From assembly GCA_013815775.1 (NCBI GenBank), contig JACDFN010000002.1, positions 128,717 to 192,716 on the forward strand: a stretch of DNA of 64,000 bases, given 5' to 3'. Shown here in pieces: positions 606 to 57,409 of this stretch. The notes under the pieces were generated by a model. That model did no database searches and was not told the DNA's origin. It saw only the letters and a list, made by a program, of their open reading frames with translations. The translations under genes were made by a program, and so were the position numbers. The DNA is from Candidatus Saccharimonadota bacterium. GTDB lineage: Bacteria > Patescibacteriota > Saccharimonadia > Saccharimonadales > UBA10212. Each line of letters opens with the position of its first letter. The stretch's first letter is position 1.

Positions 606-1694
606 ATGAACTCTGATCGTCAGATTACCGTAAACATTACCAATCGCACTATTATTCGAACAATCTTGTTGGTAGCTGGCGCAATTCTCTTTTTTCACTT
701 TATAGATGAGATTTCTCGCCCACTAACTTTAATATTTGTATCCTTCTTTCTAGCCTTAGCCCTTAACCCCGTTGTCAGTTGGATGTCACGCAGGCTGAAA
801 ATTAAAAGCCGCGCTCGGGCTACGGCAGTAGCTTTTCTTACTGTTATTATGTTTTTGGCTGGTTTTTTCGTACTGGTTATTCCACCCTTAGTTCAACAGA
901 CCAGGGATTTTATTATTGAAGTTCCTAGTATTGTTGAAAACTTTCAAGAGCAAGACACAAGCCTGTCCAGGGCCGTAGAGCGGTATAACTTAAACGATAG
1001 ACTGGCCAGTAGCGCAAATGATTTTGCCTCAGAGTATAGTAACTTTGGCGGAGCACTTCTGGATACCGGCAAAAGGGTTGCAGGGGTAGTAATTTCCGTT
1101 TTGGCTGTGCTTGTGATGACCTTTATGATGCTTGTTGAAGGTCCCCGTTGGATTAAATTATGGTGGGCCACAATGCCTGATAAGCGTCGGGAACATCACC
1201 AAAAGCTTGCCTATAAAATGTATAAATCGGTCAGCGGTTTTGTGAACGGTCAGGTACTGCTGGCTGCTCTTGCTGGAACCATGGCGTTTATAGCACTGAC
1301 GGTATCCAGTGCAGTTCTAGACGTGTCCATAAATGCCGCCGCTCTTGCTGGCATAGTGGCTGTTTTTGCGCTAATTCCATTATTCGGTAATTTAATCTCA
1401 ACAGCCCTTGTTGTTTTAGTCTGTCTACTCAATTCATTTACACTCGGGATTGTGGTGCTAGTATTCTTTATTATTTACCAGCAGATAGAAAACCTATCTA
1501 TTCAACCCTATATTCAATCACGCATCAGCGAACTTACCCCACTAATGGTCTTTATATCTGCCTTAATTGGTATAAGTTTTGGCGGTATCTTAGGTGCAAT
1601 TGTAGCAATACCTGCAGCCAGTACAGTAAAAATCTTGCTCGAGGATCAGCTTGAGCGGCGCGGTATAAAAGCTAAGATAGCCGAGACCAAATAG
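606..1694 (+). CDS. AI-2E family transporter (PerM/UPF0118-like permease)
   Basis: 362 aa polytopic membrane protein whose length and TM pattern are typical of AI-2E permeases. The ATG abuts the upstream stop (TAAATG). The 3' end overlaps convergent cysS by 23 nt. Confidence 0.7.
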   Translation: MNSDRQITVNITNRTIIRTILLVAGAILFFHFIDEISRPLTLIFVSFFLALALNPVVSWMSRRLKIKSRARATAVAFLTVIMFLAGFFVLVIPPLVQQTRDFIIEVPSIVENFQEQDTSLSRAVERYNLNDRLASSANDFASEYSNFGGALLDTGKRVAGVVISVLAVLVMTFMMLVEGPRWIKLWWATMPDKRREHHQKLAYKMYKSVSGFVNGQVLLAALAGTMAFIALTVSSAVLDVSINAAALAGIVAVFALIPLFGNLISTALVVLVCLLNSFTLGIVVLVFFIIYQQIENLSIQPYIQSRISELTPLMVFISALIGISFGGILGAIVAIPAASTVKILLEDQLERRGIKAKIAETK

Positions 1695-3108
1695 GTCCAG
1701 CAGCTTTATCCTCTAGCTCCAATCCTAGGTCCAGTAGCTGGGCTCTTATATCATCAGCGCTTTGCCAGTCTTTAGACCCACGAGCTGCTTCACGTTCAAG
1801 AATAAGTTTCTTTGTCTCTTCAGGTATATCGTCCCGGTCCAGTAGTCTAAGACCCAGACCATCATCTAGTTGCTTCAAAAATTCTTCAAATTGACCCAGG
1901 TCTTGTTTGCTCAGGCCTTTTTGTCCTACGTTGTCTATTAAATCGCTTAAAGCTGCTATCGCCAATGGAGTATTTAAATCATCCCGCAAGTGAGCTATAA
2001 ATTTCTGAATAAGAAGACTGAACATGTCGCTGGAATCGTTATTTTGTGACTGGGCTTGAAAACGTAAGTCAGCAAATGCTCTCAAGCTTTTAAGTCGGTT
2101 TTGGGCAGCCTCTAATGATTCCCATGAAAAATTCATATGGCTGCGATAGTGCGACTGCAGATACAACAGCCTTAGTGTTAAAGGATCGTAACCTTTTTTG
2201 ATGATATCGTCTAAGGTGTAATAAGTGCCAAGACTTTTGCTCATTTTTTCTCCATTAACTAAGAGATGTTCGTTGTGTATCCAGAAACGAGAGAGCTGCT
2301 TATCATAGGCCGCTTTTGTTTGGGCTATTTCGTTGGTGTGGTGGGTACCTATATGGTCTACCCCGCCGGTATGTATATCGAGTGGTTCACCCAGAGTTTC
2401 GTGGACTATCGCTGAGCATTCTAGGTGCCACCCTGGAAAACCTTTGCCCCAAGGACTATCCCAGTGCATAGAATGTCCAGCAAACCTACCAACCGTAAAA
2501 AACCAAAGAGCAAAGTCTTGGGGGTGACGCTTATTGCGATCCGTAACAACTTCTTTCCGGGCAGCAACCTCTTTCTCCTCTATTTTTTGCTTAGTCAGTA
2601 TTTCGTAGTCAGGAGCCTGCGAAACGTCGAAATAAATTGCTTCTTCAGTCTGGTAAGCAATTTTTTTATCCATAAGTAACATAATTAATGCAAGTTGAGA
2701 TTCAATGAAATCAGTTGCTCTGGCGTAGTTGTCACTGCGCTTTTTATCGGTGTATCCGTTGGGCGAAAGAATATTTAGTAAATTGCTGTCCCTCTTGAAG
2801 GCTTCTTCGTAAAATTTGGCGACCTCCCAGACAGACTTTCCCTCGCGGTTGGCTCCTTTCTCTAGTTTATCGTCACCTTCATCACCGTCGCTGGACAGGT
2901 GGCCAACATCAGTGATGTTCATCACTTGCTTTACGCTGTGCCCGGATAGCTCTAAAGTTCGTCGAAGGGTGTCGGTGAAAACGTAGGCCCGCAGGTTACC
3001 AATATGCGCAAAGTCATAAACGGTTGGGCCGCAGCTGTAAAGCATCACCTGATCTCCCCGCGGCTCGAAATGCTCAGTCTGCTTAGTAATAGTGTTGTAA
3101 AGCCTCAT
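1672..3108 (-). CDS. cysS: cysteine--tRNA ligase
   Basis: Class I aaRS signatures are present: HIGN (FAHIGNLR), KMSKS, CGPTVYD, GWHLECSA and HHTNEIAQ. Confidence 0.95.
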   Translation of the reverse strand: MRLYNTITKQTEHFEPRGDQVMLYSCGPTVYDFAHIGNLRAYVFTDTLRRTLELSGHSVKQVMNITDVGHLSSDGDEGDDKLEKGANREGKSVWEVAKFYEEAFKRDSNLLNILSPNGYTDKKRSDNYARATDFIESQLALIMLLMDKKIAYQTEEAIYFDVSQAPDYEILTKQKIEEKEVAARKEVVTDRNKRHPQDFALWFFTVGRFAGHSMHWDSPWGKGFPGWHLECSAIVHETLGEPLDIHTGGVDHIGTHHTNEIAQTKAAYDKQLSRFWIHNEHLLVNGEKMSKSLGTYYTLDDIIKKGYDPLTLRLLYLQSHYRSHMNFSWESLEAAQNRLKSLRAFADLRFQAQSQNNDSSDMFSLLIQKFIAHLRDDLNTPLAIAALSDLIDNVGQKGLSKQDLGQFEEFLKQLDDGLGLRLLDRDDIPEETKKLILEREAARGSKDWQSADDIRAQLLDLGLELEDKAAGPIWSRLS

Positions 3109-4164: not shown

Positions 4165-4773
4165 CTACATCAACTGACGGCCTTCGAAAGCACGAGTCAG
4201 GGTGATTTGGTCAGCATACTCTAGATCCATACCCACCGATATCCCCCGAGCAAGCCGGGTGATCTTTAAAGGCTTGCCTTCTAACTTCTGCATAATCAGC
4301 AAAGCCGTACTCTCTCCTTCTATGCTTGCGTTGGTGGCCAAAATTAATTCTTCTACCTTGTCGGCATCTACCCTATTAATCAGCTCATTAATATGTAGGT
4401 GCTCAGGTCCTACGTTATCTATTGGTGAGACGAGCCCTCCCAAAACATGGTAGGTGCCACTAAAACTGTTTGTTTTTTCGATTGCAACTATATCAAATGG
4501 ATCGGCTACAACGGCCACAATAGTCTTCTTACGCCGAGGGTTACTATACAGAGGGCTTACGTCTTGCCCGCTCTCTATAAGAGCAAATGTTTTTGGGCAG
4601 TATTTAGTCCCGGAATGTAGTTTTTTAATGGATTCTAGGATACTTTGTGCTTTAGAGCGGTCGCTACGAAGTAAGTAGTACGCATACCGCTCCGACGTAC
4701 GGGGGCCTACTCCAGGTAGTTGACCTAGAGCATCAATTAAATCTTGAAGAGGCCCTGGTATAACCTGCGCCAT
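4165..4773 (-). CDS. recR: recombination protein RecR
   Basis: HhH segment LPGVGPRTSERYAYYLL, NPRR motif and Toprim core LATNASIEGESTA. The zinc-finger cysteines are mostly absent (see findings). Confidence 0.9.
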   Translation of the reverse strand: MAQVIPGPLQDLIDALGQLPGVGPRTSERYAYYLLRSDRSKAQSILESIKKLHSGTKYCPKTFALIESGQDVSPLYSNPRRKKTIVAVVADPFDIVAIEKTNSFSGTYHVLGGLVSPIDNVGPEHLHINELINRVDADKVEELILATNASIEGESTALLIMQKLEGKPLKITRLARGISVGMDLEYADQITLTRAFEGRQLM

Positions 4774-5096: not shown

Positions 5097-6281
5097 TCAT
5101 TTTATCACGTAGGTGCTTCTTGTAGCCAATGTGCTGGGCCAAGCAACCAGACTGTAGCGTGTCCCTATCAAAAGATGAAGGCCAACGACTGTAACCATGA
5201 GAAGTACGGCCAGAGCTTTCGGCAATGGATTTAAAGGAAATACAGTCCTCCACTCCTTGTATAAATAACGAAGTCCGGCAGCGCTTAAGATACAGGCTGC
5301 TGGCAGGCTAAGAATTAAATATAATAAATTATTGAATACCCCAGCTGTTATAATACCGAGTACAAACATTCCTATAAGAAGGTACAACTCTCGGCGGGCA
5401 CGAGTCCACATGGCATAAAGTCCAAACAAACCTAAAACTATCTGCAAAGCGTTAAGCATGGGCAGCCGTCCTATTACTAAGGAGTGGCTATCTCTGGTCA
5501 TCCAAAATAGAGATAAGCCAGCCCATGCGGTGGATTTCATGACTTCAGTTGAATTGGCTAACTCAGAAGGAATAAGCATCAAAGACTTAACAACCGAAGG
5601 ATTCTCGATAGACGCCATCACTATTGGGGCCATAAATAGCAGAGGAATGGCAAACAGACTTATTACCACCCAACTGCGCATTGGGGCCAGTAAGTGAACA
5701 AGCTTCTTTCGAAAGATTAAGGACCCTAATAACACAAAATAAATTGTACCGGGGGTATATAATGCCACGCCAAGAACCACCATTAGCGTAAACCATGCTA
5801 ATGTTTTTTTGTCTGTTTTACTAAACCAAACGTAGGAGGCTAATAGAGCAATAGGTGTAAGAAGTAATATATACGGAGTTGCACTTCTTGCTGAAAGAAT
5901 AATAAACGGAGTCCCGGCAAGCAGCATAGTTCCCAGTAAACTGACAAGCCTACCAAACCATAAACGTAGAAGCGTGTAGAAAAAAAGCAGCAATGCCAAG
6001 GCAAACAATACCGAGCTAAGGCGCATCCAAAAAGCGCCGCTTTGCCCAGCAGATTGAAACCCTAACTGGACCAGCTTATGGGGAGCGAAAGTAGGGTCCG
6101 AAATAATATTATCTAAGCTACTACTGCTTTGCCGAGACGCTGACTCGGCCTGGCTTAATCCTGTTGTTAATGTTCCTAGACGCCAAGTATATAAAAAAAG
6201 TACTACAGAAAGTAAAAAAAGAACTGTTATCAAGCCGCCCTGCCGACTTAAAAAAGGCCACTTATTTGTGACTTTACTCAT
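5097..6281 (-). CDS. polytopic membrane protein, possibly a GT-C type (PMT/ArnT-like) glycosyltransferase
   Basis: 394 aa with about 10-11 hydrophobic helices and a Ser-rich loop after TM1. The family assignment rests only on architecture, not on motifs. Confidence 0.4.
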   Translation of the reverse strand: MSKVTNKWPFLSRQGGLITVLFLLSVVLFLYTWRLGTLTTGLSQAESASRQSSSSLDNIISDPTFAPHKLVQLGFQSAGQSGAFWMRLSSVLFALALLLFFYTLLRLWFGRLVSLLGTMLLAGTPFIILSARSATPYILLLTPIALLASYVWFSKTDKKTLAWFTLMVVLGVALYTPGTIYFVLLGSLIFRKKLVHLLAPMRSWVVISLFAIPLLFMAPIVMASIENPSVVKSLMLIPSELANSTEVMKSTAWAGLSLFWMTRDSHSLVIGRLPMLNALQIVLGLFGLYAMWTRARRELYLLIGMFVLGIITAGVFNNLLYLILSLPAACILSAAGLRYLYKEWRTVFPLNPLPKALAVLLMVTVVGLHLLIGTRYSLVAWPSTLATRSTYVIK

Positions 6282-7688: not shown

Positions 7689-9131
7689 TTAAGATTCTAA
7701 CACCTCAGCAGCCCCGAAGATATTGTTAATGGCTTCTACTGAATTAAGTTCTGGTAGAACGTTTGAAGATTTAACGTGGGCAACTTTGCCTTGCATTTTT
7801 TTCTCAAACATTTCTTTATCGACTGTACACTCGATTTTAACCTTTTGGCCGGTTACATCCTCAATAATACTTGCAATAAGATCTATATTCTTGGATTGAC
7901 TAATCTTTTTTTTGTGCAGAGGAAACTCAAATACTAAAGTTAAGTTCTCTGGGGATATCTGTGGTATCGCCAATCGAAGTGCAGTATATAACGAGGCAGC
8001 GTTTTCTTTTGATTTACCTATAACCTGCGGCCACATACTTAGATCGAAGGCTATTTGGTCCTTGGCTTTAGGCTTATTCGGTGCGGTCTCTTTTTTACTC
8101 AGAACATCAATTGCTGGAGCTTTAACTTCATTCTTTGCCTTTATAGAGGATGCTGCTTTAGGGGGCTTTTCTGAAACATTCTTCGCTGTCGCTTCAAGTA
8201 AACATATCTCTAAAAAATCTCTGGGGTTTGAGCTAGAAGAGACTTCGAGTAGTTGTTTCAGGGTTGGAACCAACCACAACGGCGCTGGGTCTTCCTCTAT
8301 TAGCTTAAGCCGTAGCACACGGCCCAAAAACTTGGCTACTAAGACCGGGTTTGCCCCATGGAGCCAAAGGTTCTCAATGTTTTTTATAGTACTGGGGCTT
8401 ATACCCTGTTCAATTGAATTAATTAACGATCTTACAGTGGAGGACGAAGGTAGCCCAAGGTGTGTTTGAACAAGTTCAGCTGTAATGAGCTTGCCACTGC
8501 CGGATAGTTGATCTAACAATCCTATGCTGTCACGAAAACTTCCATCACCATGCTCGGCTAAGATATCTAGTGCTTCGCTATCAATCTTAATGTTCTCTTT
8601 TTTAGCAATTTGGGCAAGGTGCTTGGTCGTTTGGTTGTTAGATATCTTCGTAAAGTTAAATCGTTGAGTTCGACTGATTATAGTTTCCGGAACTTTATGA
8701 GCCTCAGTGGTGGCTAAAATGAATATGCAGTGAGCAGGGGGCTCTTCAAGCGTCTTTAAGAGTGCATTAAAAGCTTCTCTAGTAAGCATATGCACTTCAT
8801 CGATAATATAAACTTTATATTGAGCAGATGTCGGGGTGATGTGTACTTTGTCGCGTAGATCTCTTATCTCATCTATGCGACGGTTGCTTGCAGCGTCAAT
8901 CTCTATGATATCAAGGTGTACAGAGTCGTCCTGGTAGTCTAATTTATTTACAGCGCGGGCAAAAATTCTAGCAACGCTAGTTTTGCCTACTCCTTTAGGG
9001 CCCGCTAACAGATAGGCATGACTAATACGTTTATTTTTTATAGCACTTTTCATAGTTTCGGTGATGTGTTCTTGGCCGATAACATCATCGAACGTCCTCG
9101 AACGGTATTTTCTATATAGTGCCTGACCCAT
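7689..9131 (-). CDS. dnaX: DNA polymerase III subunit gamma/tau
   Basis: LYRKYRSRTFDDVIGQEH, Walker A GPKGVGKT, DEVHML, and SRTQRF sensor motifs. Confidence 0.93.
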   Translation of the reverse strand: MGQALYRKYRSRTFDDVIGQEHITETMKSAIKNKRISHAYLLAGPKGVGKTSVARIFARAVNKLDYQDDSVHLDIIEIDAASNRRIDEIRDLRDKVHITPTSAQYKVYIIDEVHMLTREAFNALLKTLEEPPAHCIFILATTEAHKVPETIISRTQRFNFTKISNNQTTKHLAQIAKKENIKIDSEALDILAEHGDGSFRDSIGLLDQLSGSGKLITAELVQTHLGLPSSSTVRSLINSIEQGISPSTIKNIENLWLHGANPVLVAKFLGRVLRLKLIEEDPAPLWLVPTLKQLLEVSSSSNPRDFLEICLLEATAKNVSEKPPKAASSIKAKNEVKAPAIDVLSKKETAPNKPKAKDQIAFDLSMWPQVIGKSKENAASLYTALRLAIPQISPENLTLVFEFPLHKKKISQSKNIDLIASIIEDVTGQKVKIECTVDKEMFEKKMQGKVAHVKSSNVLPELNSVEAINNIFGAAEVLES

Positions 9132-11082: not shown

Positions 11083-13092
11083 TTATTTAAGAGGTTTTGC
11101 TGATGATATTTGGCGATAATTTCGTATATTTTTTTGTTTATTTGAGAGAACATCCGATGCCCCAACCGTAACCTTATCAAGTAAGTGTTCAGCGATTAAC
11201 GGGTGGGCTAATGCAAGCTGCTTATTCATTAGAGACATTAAAGACGAGTATGGCTGAGCTGCATTAATCTCTGGCTGCGAAGATTGCAAATCTTTTAGTG
11301 TCATGGAGAAAAGCCATCGCCGTTTATGTCCGAATAACGTGAAATACTCTAATATATCTTCTCTCCCCGCGCTTTGAACAGCGGAAAATAAACTAGAAAA
11401 TAACTCAAAAGACTCCATGAAAATATCATCAACCTTGGCGGCCGCTAGAAAGCCGGGTACATCATAGCCGTAGCGCGCGGTTAAGGGTTGGGACTGTAAG
11501 TCTTTAACATTATGCTGAGAGAAGAAGTGTTTCATGACTCCTTCATCTGCTAAAATGTCCCATCGATAGCGGAACTGGTCCAAGGCTTGATTGCGGGAAT
11601 TATCGAGGACTGACTTAAGGGCCCTTAATTTCTGCTCGTAAGACCATGTTTCAATTTCAGAAATAATCTCTGATCGTGATAAGTTTACTTTCGGGTATAT
11701 GCTATCGGCTAAAACTTCAAACTCATTTCGAGGCCACCAGGAAAGAAGTTGGACCGGTTCTGCAGTGACTATGCTTCGGGCTGTCACTAAGCCATCGATA
11801 AATAAAGATACATAATCATCAGTCTTGCTCGCACCTTTAGCTACCGGTCCGTCTAATAGTTTAAAAACATTCGGTCTTTGGCCATGGGCTGCTTGTCTTA
11901 ACTGTGAACAAAGCCACTTCACTTCATCTCGTGTATTAAATTTTAGGGAGTTGAGCATAGTGGCTATATCTAAACTTGAACCGCTAATTCGTAAAGTTAC
12001 TAGGGCACTCATAGGAGTAATTGAAAGAAGTACTGAGCTTATCGCTTCCTTATCAACTTTGGAATTTTTCAAAAGATGTTTTTTCAGCTCGCTACGTAGG
12101 AATGATAAACGTTCTAGGCTTTCTTTATTTAACCGATTAAGCGAAGAGCTAAGTCGAGGGAGCTTGTAATAACTTAATTCCGAATTATTCTGTTGAAGTT
12201 TTTGAGTCAATTTAATTCCTGGGAATCCTTGCAGTTGGCTTGCTGCGTATAGGCTAATATTGCTAAGTCTAAGCTCCAGGCTTTGCTCGTCTGGTTTACT
12301 GGGTATGTTGTCTTTAGGTGCTGAGATTACATGATCACTAAGCTTATCTAGGCGGATAACAGAGCCCTTACCTGTCTGTAATCGTCTAGGCGGTAGCAGG
12401 GGTTGCACGATTTGCCATATTTTATTGTTAATGTCTGGGACACTAAGAAGTTTATCAGCTTCAACGCAGTCCACAGCGTGAAAGTCTTTAGGAAAAAGTT
12501 GAGTTAAAAGATTATACGTTTTAACAGATTTACGTAGATGTTCAATGTCGGCTTCGTGTTCATCCCTCTTGCTGGTAGTATATTCACGGGTTACTTTCTG
12601 ACCGATTAATTGGTATGAAACTTCGGCAGGAACTTTTAAGAATATGTTTATACTTGGCCGGGGTATGCCCAGAAGGTTGTATTCCAGACTATCTTCCCAC
12701 AGAAAAAAACCTCTCTGCTCTACTTCATCTTGAAACTTAGCTCCTTGGTGAGCCATATTGGATCCGACGTAACGGTTTGACAAAACTACTTTTCCGGAAT
12801 CGATAGCACTACGAATTGCAGGAGCAGCCTCATATCGATCAAGAGCGTAGAACATGGAGGCTGTGTAAGGGCTAACTGAATTGGCTGGCCCGTAAACTCC
12901 GTTTAAGTACTGCTTAACGAAGTGACTAGAAGGCTGGTCATACCTTGGAAAATCAAAAACTTCTACATCATATCCCATAGCCTTCACACGCTCCGCCAGT
13001 AGTCTAAACTGAGTAGTTTTGCCAGAACCGTCCGCCCCTTCTAGAACTATAAACACCCCTTCTCCAGAAAAAATATTTTGTGCGTTGCTCAC
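11083..13092 (-). CDS. tmk: thymidylate kinase (N-terminal ~210 aa) fused to a ~430-aa C-terminal module with ThyX-like segments
   Basis: Tmk P-loop VLEGADGSGKTTQ, FPRY and SNRYVGSNMAHQ motifs. The C-terminal part resembles ThyX by eye, with RHR replaced by SQH. The GTG start overlaps the dcd stop (TAGTG). Confidence 0.75.
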   Translation of the reverse strand: MSNAQNIFSGEGVFIVLEGADGSGKTTQFRLLAERVKAMGYDVEVFDFPRYDQPSSHFVKQYLNGVYGPANSVSPYTASMFYALDRYEAAPAIRSAIDSGKVVLSNRYVGSNMAHQGAKFQDEVEQRGFFLWEDSLEYNLLGIPRPSINIFLKVPAEVSYQLIGQKVTREYTTSKRDEHEADIEHLRKSVKTYNLLTQLFPKDFHAVDCVEADKLLSVPDINNKIWQIVQPLLPPRRLQTGKGSVIRLDKLSDHVISAPKDNIPSKPDEQSLELRLSNISLYAASQLQGFPGIKLTQKLQQNNSELSYYKLPRLSSSLNRLNKESLERLSFLRSELKKHLLKNSKVDKEAISSVLLSITPMSALVTLRISGSSLDIATMLNSLKFNTRDEVKWLCSQLRQAAHGQRPNVFKLLDGPVAKGASKTDDYVSLFIDGLVTARSIVTAEPVQLLSWWPRNEFEVLADSIYPKVNLSRSEIISEIETWSYEQKLRALKSVLDNSRNQALDQFRYRWDILADEGVMKHFFSQHNVKDLQSQPLTARYGYDVPGFLAAAKVDDIFMESFELFSSLFSAVQSAGREDILEYFTLFGHKRRWLFSMTLKDLQSSQPEINAAQPYSSLMSLMNKQLALAHPLIAEHLLDKVTVGASDVLSNKQKNIRNYRQISSAKPLK

Positions 13093-33617: not shown

Positions 33618-33887
33618 TTACCAACTACTCTTTGTTACTCCAGGAATTTCCCCCCGAGAGGCGTGTTCCCTGAATGCTATTCGGGATAGCCCAAACTGTC
33701 TCATGTAACTGCGTGATCGACCAGATTCACTACATCGATTATTATGGCGGCTAGGGCTCGAATTACGGGGCAGACCAGCTAGGCCTTCATAATCTCCAGC
33801 AGCTTTCATCTCGGCTCGTTTCTCAGCATACTTTTCTATCATTTTTATACGTTTAGCATCTCTGGCAATTATTGATTTCTTGGCCAT
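33618..33887 (-). CDS. rpsN: 30S ribosomal protein S14 (long, Cys-less type)
   Basis: 89 aa, C-terminal [11 protein letters not shown], and no CxxC pairs. Confidence 0.93.
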
Positions 33888-49923: not shown

Positions 49924-52900
49924 TTACACCTCTTCAGCAACCTGTGGATCTTGAGCTGAGCTCTTAATTGCCCTAGCGCCTGTTCCTACAGGTATTCTTC
50001 GTCCAAGAATTACGTTCTCTTTGAGGCCGTATAAATAGTCTACTTTACCGCTGGTGGCTGCTGCTATAAGCACCCGAGTGGTGTCCTGGAAGGAAGCTGC
50101 CGACAAGAAGGAGTCAGTGCTAAGTGATGCCTTAGTAATGCCTAGGAGTAGCTGATTATACTTAACTAGGTTTTTGTTATCTTTTGCCAAACGCTCGTTA
50201 GACTCAACAACAGCCAGTTTGCTAACAACATCACCAGTTATGAACTCGCTGTCACCGGCTTCTTCGATCTGAACTCGACTAAACATTTGTTTAACTATCA
50301 CTTCAAGATGTTTATCTGCAATAGTTTGCCCCTGGCTGGCAAATATATAGAGAATCTCGTTCATTATGTAGCGCTGAGTTGCTTCAATGCCCTGTAAAAG
50401 CATGAGCTCATGGAGGTTTATTGAACCATTGGACAACCTCTGTCCGGCAGATACTTCCTCACCGTCTTTAACTAAAATTTGCTTATATCCCGGTATCTCG
50501 TAACGTACCACGCTTTTGGCTGTTGGCTTGATGGTGATGGCAGTTTCGGTAATGTGTACCTTTCCTGTTATAGGCGATGTAATTGCTTCACTGCCGTCTT
50601 CGTGGGCCGCTACTGTGTCTCCTGCACTTACTTCGTCACTCTCGGACAATGTAGTCACGCGACCAGCTAGAGAAAGCTTGATAGATTTTTGTTCCTTCGC
50701 CGTTACTTGAACTACGTAATGGTCGCCTTCTTCCCAAACACTGGCATCACCGGCTATGTCTGTTAGATAGGCTTGACCCTTAGGAGTTCGTACCTCTAGA
50801 AGTTCTTCGACGCGTGTTAGACCTTGGGTAACATCGTCTCCAGCCGTTACAGCCCCCGCTCGGTGTTTAGAGTCAAGAGACAACTGAGTGCCCGGTTCAC
50901 CAATTGATTGCGCGGCAATAACCCCTATTGGGTAGTCGCTAGCTACGAGCTCTCCAGTAGCCAGGTCAATCCCGTAACATTCCCGACTTACTCCCCGTAC
51001 ATTAGTGCACGAAAGAACACTCATTATCCTAACTTTATCAATACTTGAATCTTCTTGTATGAGTTTAGCCGCCTCTGGTGTTATTAACTGGCCGCTTTTT
51101 ATATATTTTTTAACATTTTCAGCCGCGAAACGACCAATTAATCTATCTCCCAATCCTATACCTATAAGAGTGGCGTCTGAGCGAAAGATTGGAAAACCTG
51201 GATCTTCGGTTTCATAGCCCACTGTGAATACGTCTTGAGCAACGTCTACTAATCGTCTAGTTAAGTACCCTGAGTCGGCAGTACGAAGCGCTATATCGAT
51301 GAGAGACTTACGTGTTCCGCGGGTAGCCGTGAAGTACTCTAGCGGGGTCAAACCATATTTGTAATTTGATCGAACTGGAAGTTCGATTGCTCGGCCAGTG
51401 GTATCAGCAAACATACCCAACATTCCAACGCTTTTTTTCATCTGACTAATGTTTCCGCGCGCACCTGAAGCTACGGCTATTGACATGGTATTATCTTCGG
51501 TAGCAAACTGCTCTGAAAGTGATTTCTCAACTTGCTCATCAACATCTGTCCAAGTTTCTACAGTTAGTCTGTACCGTTCGTCGTCAGTGATGAATCCTGA
51601 ATTGTATTGCTTACTAATCTCTGTTGCTCTGCTTTCGCCTTCTTCAACAATTTTAGGCAATTGTTTCAAGTCTGAGAAATCATCCATGCCAATGGATATT
51701 CCCGATAGGGTAGCGACCTTAAACCCAAGGTCTTTAAGTTCATCGGCAATCTGAGCCGTTACATCCTGACCATACTTCTGATAAGTCATGGTCATTACAG
51801 CACCAAGTTTTTTATTTGTCATAGCTTCGTTTTGGAAGGGGAAGTCGTCTGGGAAGATCTCATTGAAAAACAGTCGTCCTACAGTAGTCTTTTGCAGTTC
51901 TCCTCTGAAGGGAACCTGTACTCGAGTTTGAAGACTGACGTTTCCGTCGTCAAATGCAATTACAATTTCTTCTATACGAGAAAAAGTTTTAACCTCTTTT
52001 TGAGCTCCAGGTCTCTCGTAAGTCAAGTAATAACAACCCAGAACAATGTCTTGTTCAACGTGGAGAATCGGCGAACCGTCTGCAGGCTTTAGTAAGTTTT
52101 TGTTAGCGGCCATTATATCTCTCGCTTCGGCCTGTGCAGCATCTGATAAAGGCAGGTGCACAGCCATTTGGTCTCCGTCAAAGTCCGCATTAAAGCCTTT
52201 ACAGACGAGAGGGTGAAGCTGAATAGCCTTACCTTCAATGAGGGTAGGTTGAAAAGCTTGAATGCTCAATCGGTGAAGGCTGGGAGCGCGGTTAAGCAGA
52301 ACATATTTTCCTTTAATGACTTCGTCTAGGGCGTCCCAAACAGCTGAGTCGCTGGATTCAATCATTCTGGTTGCACTGCGAATGTTATGTGCTAACTCTT
52401 GCTCAATCAGTCTGCCGATGACAAATGGTTTAAATAGTTCCAAAGCCATCATTTTAGGTAAGCCACATTGATGCATTTTTAGTTCAGGGCCAGCTACAAT
52501 TACGCTCCGGCCTGAATAGTCAACGCGTTTTCCCAGTAGGTTTTGGCGGAATCTTCCTTGTTTACCCTTAAGCATGTCAGATAAGCTCTTTAGACGGCGG
52601 CGCTGGCCTGTGGCAGCTACTGCTCGCCCAGATCGGGCATTGTTGTTATCAATTAACGCATCCACTGCTTCCTGCAACATGCGCTGTTCGTTACGCCGAA
52701 TAACTTCAGGAGCATTAAGTTCTATTAATTTCTTTAAACGATTATTACGATTAATAACTCGTCGGTACAAATCGTTTAAGTCGGATGTTGCAAAACGACC
52801 ACCAGTAAGCTGAACCATAGGTCTGAGGTCGGGTGGAATAACTGGTAGCGTGCTAACGCACAAACTGGAGGGCTTTATTCCGGCCCTTTGCATACTTTCA

Positions 52901-53739
52901 ATAAGTCGCAGTCGTTTCATTATTTTCTTTTTGCGTTGTCCTTTAGCGTCCTCGGCTTCTTTAGACAATGCTTTGATAAGCTTATCTAGGTCAACTGCCT
53001 CGAGCAGTTCTCTTAGTGCTGAACCCCCCATGCCTACACTTATTAAAGGCTGAAGGTCCTCGGGTAAATTGCGGTAGTCGGTTTCACTAAGTAAATTAAA
53101 TTTTACAAGGCTTGAAACCTGATTTTTAAATATCTCATGCTCACGAGCCAGTTCATCCAACTCTTTAGTACGAGCAGCAGCCAATTCTCGGATATTAGCA
53201 TCCTTCTTGTCGGCTTCTTTTTCATAGCGTGCACTAATAGCAGCCGTCGCGGCTACCAGCTGAGCATCGCGATCAGATTTGATCTTGTCGCGCTTAGATT
53301 CTTCAACCGTCTTAATGATGTAGCTAGCAAAATAAGCCACCCTCTCGAGATTTTTTACCGTTAAACCAAGTAGTAGACCTATGGCGCTGGGGGTTCCTCG
53401 CAAAAACCAGATGTGGGCTACCGGTGAGGCAAGACTAATGTGCCCCATTCGTTCGCGGCGAACTATGCTTCTGGTAACTATTTCTCCGTTTTTATCTACG
53501 GCAACCTCCCTTGATCTAATTCCCTTGTACTTGGCATCATGGGGATTGATATCTTTCACAGGACCAAAGATTCGTTCGCAAAAAAGACCGTCTCTTTCGG
53601 GTTTCTGTGTTCGATAATTGATGGTTTCAGGTTTGGTTACCTCCCCGTAACTCCAAGCCATAATATCGTCCGGACTAGCTATAGCCAGGCGAACTGCATC
53701 GAAGTCAGCAATATCGGTTCCCGAATTGTAATGTCGCAT
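49924..53739 (-). CDS. rpoC: DNA-directed RNA polymerase subunit beta-prime
   Basis: NADFDGD, RRERMGHI and GKRVDYSGRSVI motifs; 1271 aa. The start overlaps the rpoB stop (TAATG). Confidence 0.98.
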   Translation of the reverse strand: MRHYNSGTDIADFDAVRLAIASPDDIMAWSYGEVTKPETINYRTQKPERDGLFCERIFGPVKDINPHDAKYKGIRSREVAVDKNGEIVTRSIVRRERMGHISLASPVAHIWFLRGTPSAIGLLLGLTVKNLERVAYFASYIIKTVEESKRDKIKSDRDAQLVAATAAISARYEKEADKKDANIRELAAARTKELDELAREHEIFKNQVSSLVKFNLLSETDYRNLPEDLQPLISVGMGGSALRELLEAVDLDKLIKALSKEAEDAKGQRKKKIMKRLRLIESMQRAGIKPSSLCVSTLPVIPPDLRPMVQLTGGRFATSDLNDLYRRVINRNNRLKKLIELNAPEVIRRNEQRMLQEAVDALIDNNNARSGRAVAATGQRRRLKSLSDMLKGKQGRFRQNLLGKRVDYSGRSVIVAGPELKMHQCGLPKMMALELFKPFVIGRLIEQELAHNIRSATRMIESSDSAVWDALDEVIKGKYVLLNRAPSLHRLSIQAFQPTLIEGKAIQLHPLVCKGFNADFDGDQMAVHLPLSDAAQAEARDIMAANKNLLKPADGSPILHVEQDIVLGCYYLTYERPGAQKEVKTFSRIEEIVIAFDDGNVSLQTRVQVPFRGELQKTTVGRLFFNEIFPDDFPFQNEAMTNKKLGAVMTMTYQKYGQDVTAQIADELKDLGFKVATLSGISIGMDDFSDLKQLPKIVEEGESRATEISKQYNSGFITDDERYRLTVETWTDVDEQVEKSLSEQFATEDNTMSIAVASGARGNISQMKKSVGMLGMFADTTGRAIELPVRSNYKYGLTPLEYFTATRGTRKSLIDIALRTADSGYLTRRLVDVAQDVFTVGYETEDPGFPIFRSDATLIGIGLGDRLIGRFAAENVKKYIKSGQLITPEAAKLIQEDSSIDKVRIMSVLSCTNVRGVSRECYGIDLATGELVASDYPIGVIAAQSIGEPGTQLSLDSKHRAGAVTAGDDVTQGLTRVEELLEVRTPKGQAYLTDIAGDASVWEEGDHYVVQVTAKEQKSIKLSLAGRVTTLSESDEVSAGDTVAAHEDGSEAITSPITGKVHITETAITIKPTAKSVVRYEIPGYKQILVKDGEEVSAGQRLSNGSINLHELMLLQGIEATQRYIMNEILYIFASQGQTIADKHLEVIVKQMFSRVQIEEAGDSEFITGDVVSKLAVVESNERLAKDNKNLVKYNQLLLGITKASLSTDSFLSAASFQDTTRVLIAAATSGKVDYLYGLKENVILGRRIPVGTGARAIKSSAQDPQVAEEV

Positions 53740-56700
53740 TATTTAGACTCCTCTTCTTGGTTAGGCGCAATGTTTACTGTGTCATCAGTAGCTAGCTCAA
53801 CATCCCCCGAGATCGACAACCCTTCGTCCTCGCTAATACCAAATTCTTTAGCGACTTGCTCTACACTATCAGCGCCTACGTTAATAGGCTCAAGCGGGCT
53901 GATGGTGGGTATGTGCGCTGCTTCATTTTTAATGTTTTCAGCTAAAACTTTCTCTGCGTCAATTATCTGATTGTTCGCAAGTAAATCAACTTTGAGTCCG
54001 AGACCTTGAAGTTCTTTAACGAGTACGTTAAAGCTTTCTGGAATTTTAGGACCTTGAATTTCAGTACCCTTGATAATACTTTCATAGGCCTTGGCTCGAC
54101 CGTAAACATCATCTGATTTAATTGTCAGCATTTCCTGTAGGGTGTTAGCGGCACCATACGCTTCTAGCGCCCAAACCTCCATTTCTCCAAATCGCTGACC
54201 ACCGTTTTGGGCCTTTCCGCCCAACGGTTGCTGGGTAACCATTGTGTATGGTCCAGTAGAGCGGGCGTGGATTTTGTCAGATACCATGTGGTTTAGTTTG
54301 ATAATATACATACTGCCAACGGTAGTTCTCTCGGCAAAGGCTTCACCGGTACGTCCATCGTAAAGTTGTTGTTTGCCATCTTTGGGCAAACCGGCTTCTC
54401 CAAGAAGATCTTGTATTTTTTCGATTGGTATTCCGTTGAAAGCTGGACTTGCAACTTTAATACCAAGAGCCCTGGCTGCCATTCCAAGATGCGTTTCAAA
54501 CAGCTGTCCAATATTCATTCGGGACGGTACTCCCAGAGGGTTCAAAATAATGTCAACTGGTGTTCCATCTTCATTAAAGGGCATGTCCTCTACGGGTAGG
54601 ATTCTTGCAATCACACCTTTGTTACCGTGTCGGCCGCCTAATTTATCACCGACTGAAATCTTACGCATCTGGGCCACAAAAACCTGTATTTGCATAATCA
54701 CACCTGCCTTGAGTTCATGTCCTGAGGCTCTAGAAAATACTTTGACGCCCACTACCTTTCCGTGCCGGCCTGTACTCATTCGTTGAGAAGTATCGCGAAC
54801 TTCCTTAGCTTTTTCACCAAATATAGCTCGAAGAAGTCGTTCTTCGCTAGATAACTCTTGCTCGCCTTTTGGTGTTATTTTTCCTACTAGAATATCACCT
54901 GGATGAACCTCGGCACCTATGCGAACGATGCCATCTTCGTCAAGGTGTCTTAGAGCCTCTTCACTAACATTAGGAATATCTCTTGTTACAATTTCGGGAC
55001 CAAGTTTAGTCTCACGAACTTCAGTCATGTAGTCCACTATATGAATGGACGTTAGAGTATCGTCTTCCACCAACTCGCGAGAAATAATTATGGCATCCTC
55101 GAAGTTATAGCCAGCCCAAGGCATAAAAGCTGTTAGGAGGTCTTTCCCAAGAGCAAGCTCACCTCCGGCTATGCTCATACCTTCAATTAATGGATCACCC
55201 TCTTTGACTTTATCGCCTCGGTTAACCACTACAACTTGATTTATAGAGCTTCCTTCGTTGCTACGATTAAAGTGAATAGGTTCGTATTTAATAGACTTGC
55301 CATTAGAATACTTAACCATCACTTCGTCGGCATCCGCTTTAATAACTTCGCCGCTGCCGCTGGCAACAATAAGCTGCCCTGTATTTTGGGCTACTATACT
55401 TTCAAAACCGGTACCTACAATTGGTGCTTCTGGTTTAATCAACGGTACGGCTTGACGCTGTTGATTACTACCCATTAATGATCTAAGAACATAATTCTTC
55501 TCAATAAATGGAATCAGGCTAGCACTACTGCCGATAGTTTGACTCCGACTAGAGTCCATATTGGTCACAATATTGGCGTCTACCTCACCCGGTTCAAGCT
55601 TGTTACGAACGCTGACACGAGGGTCAATAAAATAACCATTCTCATCAAGGGCATTACCTGCTCCAGCTATAATCGCTCGCTCCTCCTCGGATGAATCAAG
55701 GTATACAATTTCATTTGTCACTTTGGCTTTAACGGGCCAGGTAATGCGTTCCTTAACGGTTGCCAGAGTCTTGGCGGCAGCTTCAGAAATTACAGCTCCC
55801 GATTTAACTATTACCTTGCCTTTTTCATTCTCTAGATCACTAGCTGCAATATGGCCAGCCGCTTGCTTGGCTGGAACGGCATTAATGACCCTCCTGTATG
55901 GAGTTTCTATAAAGCCATACTCATTTACTCTTGCGTAGCTAGCTAAATTAAGTACTAAACCGATGTTGGCTCCTTCGGGAGTTTCAACAGGACAGATGCG
56001 GCCGTAATGAGTTGCGTGGGCGTCACGAACTTCAAAACCAGCTCGTTCACGAGATAATCCTCCGGGTCCCATGGAACTTAGACGGCGCTTATGGGCAAGT
56101 TCAGAGAGAGGATTAATTTGATCCATAAACTGTGAAAGCTGACTGGATGCAAAAAACTCTCTCACTGCTGCAACTACCGGTCGCGCGTTGATTAACTGAG
56201 CGGGTGTAACGGTTTCAATCTCGCTCATGGACATACGGTCTTTGGCATTTCGTTCCATACGCAGCAGACCAATGCGAAATTGACGTTGAACCAGCTCTCC
56301 GACCAGCTTTACTCGCCTGTTAGAAAGCGAGTCAATTTCGTCCCCGGGTTCCTGGGTAACATTTAAACGAATAACTTCAGCAATTATGGCGCTTATGTCC
56401 TCAATGCGCATGATCCTGTTTTCGATTGTGTTATCCACGTCAAGGTTCAGTCGCTTGTTTAGCTTGTACCTGCCCACCTTGCCAAAGTCAAAGCGTTTGA
56501 AGTTATAGAACATGTTTTCGATTAAGCTACGGGCATTATCAACAGTGGCTAGATCTCCCGGACGTAGACGCCGATATACTTCAATTAATGCCTCATTCGT
56601 ACTCTTGCTGGGATCTTTCTCGAGTGTAGCTTCAATGTGCTTAACCTCACCTTGGTCTACGTGCTTAAAGGTATCCTTAATTTGTTCTTCACTCAAACCA

Positions 56701-57287
56701 AAGGCTTTTAGGAGTGTTGTGACAGCGAGTTTTCGCTTTCGGTCAATTTTGACGAATAGGGCTCCGGCTGCGGATGTTTCAAACTCCAGCCATGCTCCTC
56801 GAACAGGGATTACCTTAGCTCCGTAGAGATTGTGGGCACCGTGGGGTTCAGCAGTGAAGAATACTCCGGATGATCTTATCAACTGACTTACCACTACCCT
56901 CTCGGCACCATTTATTACAAAGGTTCCTCGACTTGTCATCCAGGGATAATCCCCCAAATAAATTTCTGATTCTTTAACTTCTCCAGTTACCTTATTTGTT
57001 AACTCGACTGTAGCTTTTAAAGGGGCGTCGAAACTGACATTATTCTCACGAGCCTCTGATTCGCTCATTTTGGGGTCTTCAAAGTGATAATCTTTAAAAC
57101 TAATACTTAGTTTTTGGCCGGTGTAGTCGTCAATTGGGCTAATTTCCGCCAATAGCTCTCCTAGACCTTCTTCTACAAACCATTGAAACGAGGAATTTTG
57201 GTGGTTTACAAGGTTCGGAGGACTAATTACGTCATCAGATTTTGTGTAGTGTGTTCGTTTTTGAGTAATATCGCTTTTTTTGGCCAT
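53739..57287 (-). CDS. rpoB: DNA-directed RNA polymerase subunit beta
   Basis: Conserved beta motifs are present (..GDKLGGRHGNKGV.., ..MNIGQLFETHLG..). I prefer the ATG at 57287 (MAKKSD..); TTG starts at 57290 and 57296 remain possible. A GGGAG SD lies at 57299-57303. Confidence 0.97.
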   Translation of the reverse strand: MAKKSDITQKRTHYTKSDDVISPPNLVNHQNSSFQWFVEEGLGELLAEISPIDDYTGQKLSISFKDYHFEDPKMSESEARENNVSFDAPLKATVELTNKVTGEVKESEIYLGDYPWMTSRGTFVINGAERVVVSQLIRSSGVFFTAEPHGAHNLYGAKVIPVRGAWLEFETSAAGALFVKIDRKRKLAVTTLLKAFGLSEEQIKDTFKHVDQGEVKHIEATLEKDPSKSTNEALIEVYRRLRPGDLATVDNARSLIENMFYNFKRFDFGKVGRYKLNKRLNLDVDNTIENRIMRIEDISAIIAEVIRLNVTQEPGDEIDSLSNRRVKLVGELVQRQFRIGLLRMERNAKDRMSMSEIETVTPAQLINARPVVAAVREFFASSQLSQFMDQINPLSELAHKRRLSSMGPGGLSRERAGFEVRDAHATHYGRICPVETPEGANIGLVLNLASYARVNEYGFIETPYRRVINAVPAKQAAGHIAASDLENEKGKVIVKSGAVISEAAAKTLATVKERITWPVKAKVTNEIVYLDSSEEERAIIAGAGNALDENGYFIDPRVSVRNKLEPGEVDANIVTNMDSSRSQTIGSSASLIPFIEKNYVLRSLMGSNQQRQAVPLIKPEAPIVGTGFESIVAQNTGQLIVASGSGEVIKADADEVMVKYSNGKSIKYEPIHFNRSNEGSSINQVVVVNRGDKVKEGDPLIEGMSIAGGELALGKDLLTAFMPWAGYNFEDAIIISRELVEDDTLTSIHIVDYMTEVRETKLGPEIVTRDIPNVSEEALRHLDEDGIVRIGAEVHPGDILVGKITPKGEQELSSEERLLRAIFGEKAKEVRDTSQRMSTGRHGKVVGVKVFSRASGHELKAGVIMQIQVFVAQMRKISVGDKLGGRHGNKGVIARILPVEDMPFNEDGTPVDIILNPLGVPSRMNIGQLFETHLGMAARALGIKVASPAFNGIPIEKIQDLLGEAGLPKDGKQQLYDGRTGEAFAERTTVGSMYIIKLNHMVSDKIHARSTGPYTMVTQQPLGGKAQNGGQRFGEMEVWALEAYGAANTLQEMLTIKSDDVYGRAKAYESIIKGTEIQGPKIPESFNVLVKELQGLGLKVDLLANNQIIDAEKVLAENIKNEAAHIPTISPLEPINVGADSVEQVAKEFGISEDEGLSISGDVELATDDTVNIAPNQEEESK

Positions 57288-57409
57288 CAACAGCAAGGCT
57301 CCCTTCCCATACGTTGTTATAAATTATGCGCTTTCGCGAAGACACTACGTTCGGCGTGCAAATATTTCCCCCATAGCAAGCACCAAAGTACACTACTTCT
57401 TAACATACC

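Follow-up and report, generated by a model that had tools for sequence, protein, structure and literature searches.

An RNA polymerase beta-prime subunit without Zn1 cysteines, fixed in a Saccharibacteria clade, is most likely independent of structural zinc

The two zinc ions of the beta-prime subunit are regarded as an invariant part of bacterial RNA polymerase. In Escherichia coli, the ligands reportedly are C70, C72, C85 and C88 at the first site (Zn1) and C814, C888, C895 and C898 at the second (Zn2), an assignment attributed to Markov et al. in 1999 (Genes Dev 13:2439, as cited in PMC12632275); Zn2 clamps two distant beta-prime segments during assembly. Zinc ribbons without cysteines are known from ribosomal proteins, and Makarova et al. 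are said to have described C-minus (zinc-independent) forms of L31, L33, L36 and S14 in 2001. The mycobacterial AltRPs are C-minus ribosomal proteins (PMC5912738), and DksA, a factor that binds RNA polymerase, has a zinc-free paralog, DksA2 (PMC9213440, PMC4850274). RpoC itself was termed an important zinc-dependent protein in a recent review, and deletion of the zinc importer gene zupT in Cupriavidus disturbed RpoC synthesis and left RpoC in inclusion bodies (PMC12632275). Here, we describe the rpoC gene, which encodes beta-prime, in a 64,000-nucleotide stretch of a Candidatus Saccharimonadota bacterium (contig JACDFN010000002.1 of assembly GCA_013815775.1, positions 128,717 to 192,716; hereafter the window). 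All four Zn1 cysteines are gone from its product and two of four remain at Zn2. At a probability of roughly 0.7, we favor the reading that this is a working rpoC in which metal-free residues took the place of both structural Zn(Cys)4 sites in the ancestor from which a large Saccharibacteria clade descends, leaving a metal-independent, lineage-fixed equivalent of the N-terminal zinc-binding domain (ZBD).

Residues were mapped by pairwise MAFFT alignment to E. coli K-12 RpoC from NC_000913, which placed C70, C72, C85 and C88 at P66, D68, V81 and N84, respectively. A phmmer search of all solved structures with the N-terminal 156 residues, with beta-prime matches that include E. coli, Xanthomonas and Clostridioides, gave the same mapping and ran ungapped through the Zn1 segment (E ~5e-51), and the flanks RIFGPVK and VRRERMGHI match on both sides of it. 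The original prediction had proposed precisely these four replacements; its register proved correct, and the ungapped alignment to E. coli beta-prime leaves no alternative set of Cys or His ligands. The canonical arrangement of four cysteine ligands, CxC...CxxC, is therefore absent, and the MAFFT mapping reveals no cysteine at all in RpoC residues 55-293. The ribbon nevertheless has the length, register and nucleic-acid-contact residues of a canonical ZBD, with K70, Y71, K72, R77, K83 and G85 standing for E. coli K74, Y75, K76, R81, K87 and G89. Across the clade, the former Zn1 positions are occupied by Pro, Asp, Val or Ile, and a variable polar residue (N, K, E, D, Q or R).

At the second site, MAFFT mapped C814, C888, C895 and C898 to P847, C911, S918 and C921, so that the window RpoC retains two of the four cysteines, as had been claimed, including the change of C895 to Ser and the loss of C814. 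A conserved new motif, (E/D)DPG(F/Y/L)P, occupies the position of E. coli DDCG. Clade relatives have between zero and two Zn2 cysteines, and most of the 120 closest homologs keep only the equivalent of C888. Because 116 of these 120 relatives have Ser at the C898 position and a large subclade lacks any Zn2 cysteine, C911 and C921 read as evolutionary leftovers. Loss at Zn2 with all four Zn1 cysteines kept was also encountered outside the clade, in three metagenome-assembled genomes (MAGs) of Dehalococcoidia/Chloroflexota (L024, L026 and L067) and in the 50%-identity representatives P0167, P0176, P0184 and P0221; the Zn2 states of such sequences, for example D/SSC, L/CSA or ASSD, have lost most or all of the cysteines. 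Judged from these alignments, loss of the 'assembly' zinc site alone appears to have happened repeatedly outside Saccharibacteria.

The gene carrying these changes is an rpoC by domain content and by context. A database protein 100% identical to the window RpoC, annotated as the beta-prime subunit from a Candidatus Saccharibacteria bacterium, contains Rpb1 domains 1-5 in Pfam (PF04997, PF00623, PF04983, PF05000 and PF04998), and homology to solved beta-prime chains extends over the full length. The rpoB-rpoC arrangement is the canonical operon context, with rpsL, rpsG and fusA downstream of rpoC. Moreover, the catalytic motif NADFDGD is intact, with D519, D521 and D523 mapping to E. coli D460, D462 and D464, which indicates that rpoC encodes a working polymerase subunit and no decaying copy.

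The Cys-less state is not peculiar to this genome. Among the 120 closest homologs (79-100% identical), Zn1 is Cys-free in all 120, reading PDVN in 115, PDVR in 3, PDVH in 1 and PDIN in 1. In a second, heavily sampled subclade, formed by the relatives of P0121, 119 of 119 sequences carry PDV(E/D) at Zn1 and T-P-A at Zn2, with zero zinc cysteines. A search of 1.84 billion 50%-identity representatives returned 27,104 matches, and among the best 150, which were examined, the Cys-less state is limited to the four nearest clusters (53-57% identical), with PDVE, PDVK, PSVS and PDVQ; the remaining 146 comprise 139 with CCCC at Zn1, 1 with four cysteines at another spacing and 6 N-terminal truncations. 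Two sets of candidate exceptions were rejected in this survey: P0227, apparently 'CCCE' at Zn1, has on inspection four cysteines with different spacing, and six representatives gapped at Zn1 are N-terminally truncated fragments (alignment scores <=37). A genomic scan with one genome per GTDB species, from which the best 80 of more than 600 matches were examined, yielded 14 loci Cys-less at Zn1 and 66 with CCCC. The claim that Cys-less ZBDs are uncommon elsewhere thus held, as all 326 complete non-clade beta-prime sequences examined (140 representatives, 66 GTDB loci and 120 from the sister lineage) have four Zn1 cysteines, and within the clade the Cys-less Zn1 state recurs in about 250 independent assemblies from NCBI, ENA, JGI and Logan.

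In a neighbor-joining tree of 86 full-length beta-prime sequences, every Cys-less sequence falls into one clade, the group that submitters call Saccharimonadales or Saccharibacteria, and L016 is its sister branch; when the zinc-site columns were left out, 100/100 neighbor-joining bootstraps again gave a monophyletic Cys-less group with L016 as its sister. The sister lineage has CCCC at Zn1 and at Zn2 in 121 of 121 sequences (L016 and its 120 closest relatives), some of which submitters labelled Candidatus Saccharimonadia or Saccharibacteria, and it shares the gene order Tig-ClpP-rpoB-rpoC-rpsL-rpsG with the window. Its members (L016, L085, L086 and P0296-P0415) form a natural comparison group. 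The zinc cysteines are likewise present in Peribacteria, the next nearest named group. Since the sister lineage keeps all eight ligand cysteines, the loss is confined to one internal branch: it was a single event inside Saccharibacteria and is not general to the candidate phyla radiation. Five CCCC MAGs labelled 'uncultured Candidatus Saccharibacteria' (L035, L063, L064, L075 and L082) were considered as exceptions within the clade and dismissed, as their beta-prime groups with Parcubacteria-type sequences (Taylorbacteria, Ryanbacteria); on this placement, they were probably mislabelled at deposit. The NCBI taxonomy of these groups is itself not consistent.

Subsequently, we consider whether the altered ribbon is a maintained domain. 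The 26-residue Zn1 segment has zero gaps in 18 diverse clade members, and its identity to the window within the clade (58-92%) always exceeds that of the whole protein (49-73%), whereas against outgroups the segment (35-42%) falls below the whole protein (46-52%). Conservation inside the clade combined with divergence from outgroups points to a burst of remodelling followed by strong constraint. Furthermore, in comparisons with 13 other species, 11-19 of the 26 Zn1 codons differ only synonymously and 2-7 change the amino acid; the remodelled segment is under purifying selection. As a homolog of a Cys4 ribbon with replaced ligands and under such selection, it matches what defines a C-minus protein. 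Together, the ungapped and conserved segment, the synonymous excess and the kept contact residues suggest that the domain is kept for the same kind of job, and we infer that only the means by which the ZBD is stabilized has changed, its role being retained. In E. coli, K74 and K87 of the ZBD contact non-template strand DNA of the promoter spacer, a ZBD mutant with all four cysteines changed to Ser shows a defect in sigma-28-dependent transcription, and a ZBD deletion could not be made (10.1101/2020.01.02.893370).

The N-terminal ribbon would accordingly have been remodelled and not lost, with its length and register kept. In the mechanism that we propose, the CxC knuckle has become an N-P-H-D turn and the CxxC-G knuckle a D-K-x-G turn (D-K-N-G in the window); Pro, Asn/Asp and Gly are residues that typically favor turns. 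These new turns, together with side-chain packing or hydrogen bonds, would take over from zinc in joining the two hairpins. Pro66 and Val81 may pack where two thiolates stood, and a hydrogen bond or salt bridge may link Asp68 to residue 84 (N, K, R, Q, E or D), such that the remodelled domain could still form its share of the RNA-exit and upstream-DNA surface. Zn2 would likewise have been replaced by metal-free residues. The absence of metal, the retention of the fold, the unchanged function and the selective cause are all points that we infer from sequence, and on this footing the enzyme most likely has no need of structural zinc.

Cysteine was lost specifically at the metal sites, as judged by the non-ligand cysteines that were kept: the equivalents of E. 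coli C58, C366 and C454 are present in 114-119 of the 120 homologs. Beta-prime has 2-8 cysteines in the clade against a mean of 14 elsewhere, a gap of about the eight ligands. The original prediction had also proposed a wider loss of zinc sites in the window, which stood for three of the proteins named and only in part for the fourth. RecR (TIGR00615, 206 bits) keeps one of its four zinc-finger cysteines, the equivalent of E. coli C57, with C60, C69 and C72 changed to T, S and Y; DnaX, the clamp-loader gamma/tau subunit, has a 14-residue deletion relative to E. coli that removes C64, C73, C76 and C79; and L36 is Cys-free, with the zinc-independent type B as its best NCBIfam match. L33, by contrast, still has three cysteines (CDAC...C). 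S14, for its part, is the 89-amino-acid long, non-type-Z form with a single cysteine. No zinc-ribbon protein was found in the 10-kb flanks of the sister-lineage rpoC. The ligand-specific loss in beta-prime and the changes in RecR, DnaX, L36 and S14 favor a sparing of structural zinc over a general avoidance of cysteine. The probable driver, then, is organism-level selection for economy in structural zinc; failing that, drift in a reduced genome would account for the loss. On either view, the change would not be a shift of mechanism specific to RNA polymerase. A broader proposal, which we advance only tentatively and hold to be somewhat less likely than even odds, is that crown Saccharibacteria purged structural Zn(Cys)4 sites across the core information machinery (both sites of RNA polymerase, DnaX, RecR and ribosomal proteins) on one datable branch, with the sites preserved in the syntenic sister lineage, giving an obligately zinc-sparing cell with a zinc-free, possibly oxidation-insensitive RNA polymerase.

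Table 1 Coordinates of rpoC, its zinc-site positions and other features of the window
Feature	Coordinates	Strand	Remark
rpoC, RNA polymerase beta-prime, 1271 amino acids	49924..53739	minus	open reading frame and translation
Zn1 ribbon equivalent (ZBD), residues 63-88, Cys-free	53476..53553	minus	DINPHDAKYKGIRSREVAVDKNGEIV
Former Zn1 ligand positions	P66 53542-53544; D68 53536-53538; V81 53497-53499; N84 53488-53490	minus	
Second zinc site remnant	50977..51201: P847 51199-51201; C911 51007-51009; S918 50986-50988; C921 50977-50979	minus	
Catalytic motif NADFDGD, N517-D523	52171..52191	minus	intact
C54, conserved non-ligand Cys (E. coli C58)	53578..53580	minus	retained
C425, non-ligand Cys	52465-52467	minus	retained
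C513, non-ligand Cys	52201-52203	minus	retained
Extra RpoC residues ~147-290	52870-53300	minus	
rpoB, beta subunit	53739..57296	minus	stop overlaps rpoC start (TAATG)
Cysteinyl-tRNA synthetase	1672-3108	minus	
RecR	4165-4773	minus	
394-amino-acid open reading frame	5097-6281	minus	
DnaX	7689-9131	minus	
669-amino-acid open reading frame	11083-13092	minus	
L33	18135-18329	minus	
L36	29244-29369	minus	
S14	33618-33887	minus	

Several observations weigh against a metal-independent domain fixed in the lineage and shaped by zinc economy. The non-clade census covers the approximately 330 nearest sequences, and the zinc-sparing motive would be drawn from five proteins in one 64-kb window. In AlphaFold2 models, built for the subunit alone from alignment rows with identities of 79% or more, the mean predicted local distance difference test (pLDDT) score was 56.8 for residues 1-480 (39 sequences) and 58.2 for residues 1-1200 (120 sequences), and in both runs the ZBD lies below 50; however, the conserved catalytic core lies equally below 50, so the low value is not specific to the ZBD. 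Finally, H67, D68 and D82 are nearly invariant in the 120 homologs and position 84 is acidic in one subclade (Glu or Asp in 119/119 of the relatives of P0121), as a different metal site could explain. Such a re-ligated site would bind metal through a new His/carboxylate set of H67, D68, D82 and E/D84. Two of the four former ligand positions, however, are Pro and Val/Ile, which are incapable of metal binding, other subclades have N, K, R, H, Q or S at position 84, and P0123 carries F-S instead of H-D, so that no single ligand set is conserved clade-wide, while Zn2 (TPA) is left without any candidate set. Given an inconstant position 84 and a Pro and Val that cannot bind metal, a conserved replacement metal site appears unlikely, if less so in the subclade with an acidic residue 84, and we regard re-ligation in general as improbable.

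The low model confidence for residues 60-115, taken together with genomes that are highly reduced, could alternatively suggest a degenerate relic, in which the zinc-less ribbon is unfolded or non-functional and is tolerated since its partners, termination and antitermination factors, were lost in genome reduction. A relic would hardly be more conserved than the protein average, free of indels and almost entirely synonymous in its codon differences, nor would it be expected to retain the Lys, Tyr and Arg that contact nucleic acid; with the confidence just as low in the catalytic core, the models are uninformative here, and this account strikes us as quite unlikely. General cysteine avoidance, through cysteine auxotrophy or thiol-oxidation stress, would have removed the zinc sites only because they are made of cysteine. 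The window proteome is indeed Cys-poor, at 0.36% (71 of 19,850 residues in 76 main open reading frame products, 44 of which are Cys-free), although the window is rich in ribosomal proteins and this value may overstate the genome-wide depletion. Yet the non-ligand cysteines of beta-prime are similar in number inside and outside the clade, and for the syntenic Tig, ClpP, RpoB, S12, S7 and EF-G, cysteine is about equally scarce in the zinc-retaining sister lineage (0.36% against 0.21%). The zinc module of DnaX, moreover, was deleted whole and not merely stripped of cysteine, and the window encodes a cysteinyl-tRNA synthetase in which the catalytic zinc-site cysteines (YSCGP, HLECS) are kept, which indicates that the organism still uses cysteine and catalytic zinc; general avoidance is, in our judgment, a rather unlikely cause. 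An artefact, be it a wrong register, a sequencing or assembly error, a pseudogene or a second copy, has a negligible chance of being correct in view of the ungapped alignment with near-identical flanks, the intact reading frame with its catalytic motif in the canonical operon, and the number of independent assemblies that share the Cys-less state. A remodelled, metal-independent ZBD under constraint therefore remains the account that we prefer.

Other features of the locus were noted in passing. The window RpoC is about 59 residues longer ahead of the catalytic motif than that of E. coli (DFDGD at 519 versus 460), and its extra residues, at approximately 147-290, form long helices in the AlphaFold2 model and are the sole N-terminal part with pLDDT above 80; as beta-prime of the sister lineage is of similar length, these residues are not tied to zinc loss. 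Elsewhere in the window, a 669-amino-acid product matches dTMP kinase over its first ~210 residues and continues into a long C-terminal extension without an NCBIfam match, and a 394-amino-acid product encoded between ybaB/recR and dnaB has an N-terminal hydrophobic segment and no NCBIfam match.

A large and abundant lineage that has long done without both sites would provide a natural answer to the question of whether zinc itself, or only the shape that it holds, matters for ZBD function and beta-prime assembly. The clade segments represent a solution already worked out in sequence, suitable for grafting into model enzymes, and a matched zinc-containing sister lineage is available for comparison. 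The trait also hints at how the episymbiotic Saccharibacteria handle metals and thiols. In practical terms, a Cys-less Zn1 is a simple sequence marker for the clade, in which annotation rules and site features that assume zinc cysteines will fail.

A Cys-less beta-prime was reported neither in the full-text literature that we searched (subscription literature being outside the search) nor in a 2024 review of bacterial metalloproteome remodelling. Canonical beta-prime and the clade form agree in the protein itself, in the position, length and flanks of the sites, in the contact residues, in the catalytic core and in the operon, whereas the clade form has no cysteine at Zn1 and 0-2 of four at Zn2, with NPHD and DKxG where the zinc knuckles were and (E/D)DPGxP in place of DDCG. 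In the sister Saccharimonadia lineage (L016, P0296-P0415), beta-prime is approximately 52% identical, syntenic, similar in length (1260 versus 1271 amino acids) and equipped with the same KYKGIR core of the ZBD, but it differs in having all eight zinc-ligand cysteines in 121/121 sequences. With DksA2, the clade beta-prime shares the condition of a transcription-machinery protein in which a structural Cys4 finger is dispensable and a metal-free fold stands in its place; DksA2, however, has an accessory role and is a paralog expressed conditionally, whereas beta-prime is a catalytic core subunit. The C-minus ribosomal proteins present the same passage from a Cys4 ribbon to a Cys-less homolog of the same fold family and the same link to zinc economy, but they are usually Zur-switched paralog pairs, whereas here the only rpoC copy visible in the window, which encodes an essential, single-copy enzyme subunit, has been permanently converted, clade-wide. 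Thus, C-minus zinc-ribbon proteins are known, and what is new here is a clade-fixed beta-prime that is Cys-less at Zn1, has 0-2 cysteines at Zn2 and is, most likely, metal-independent.

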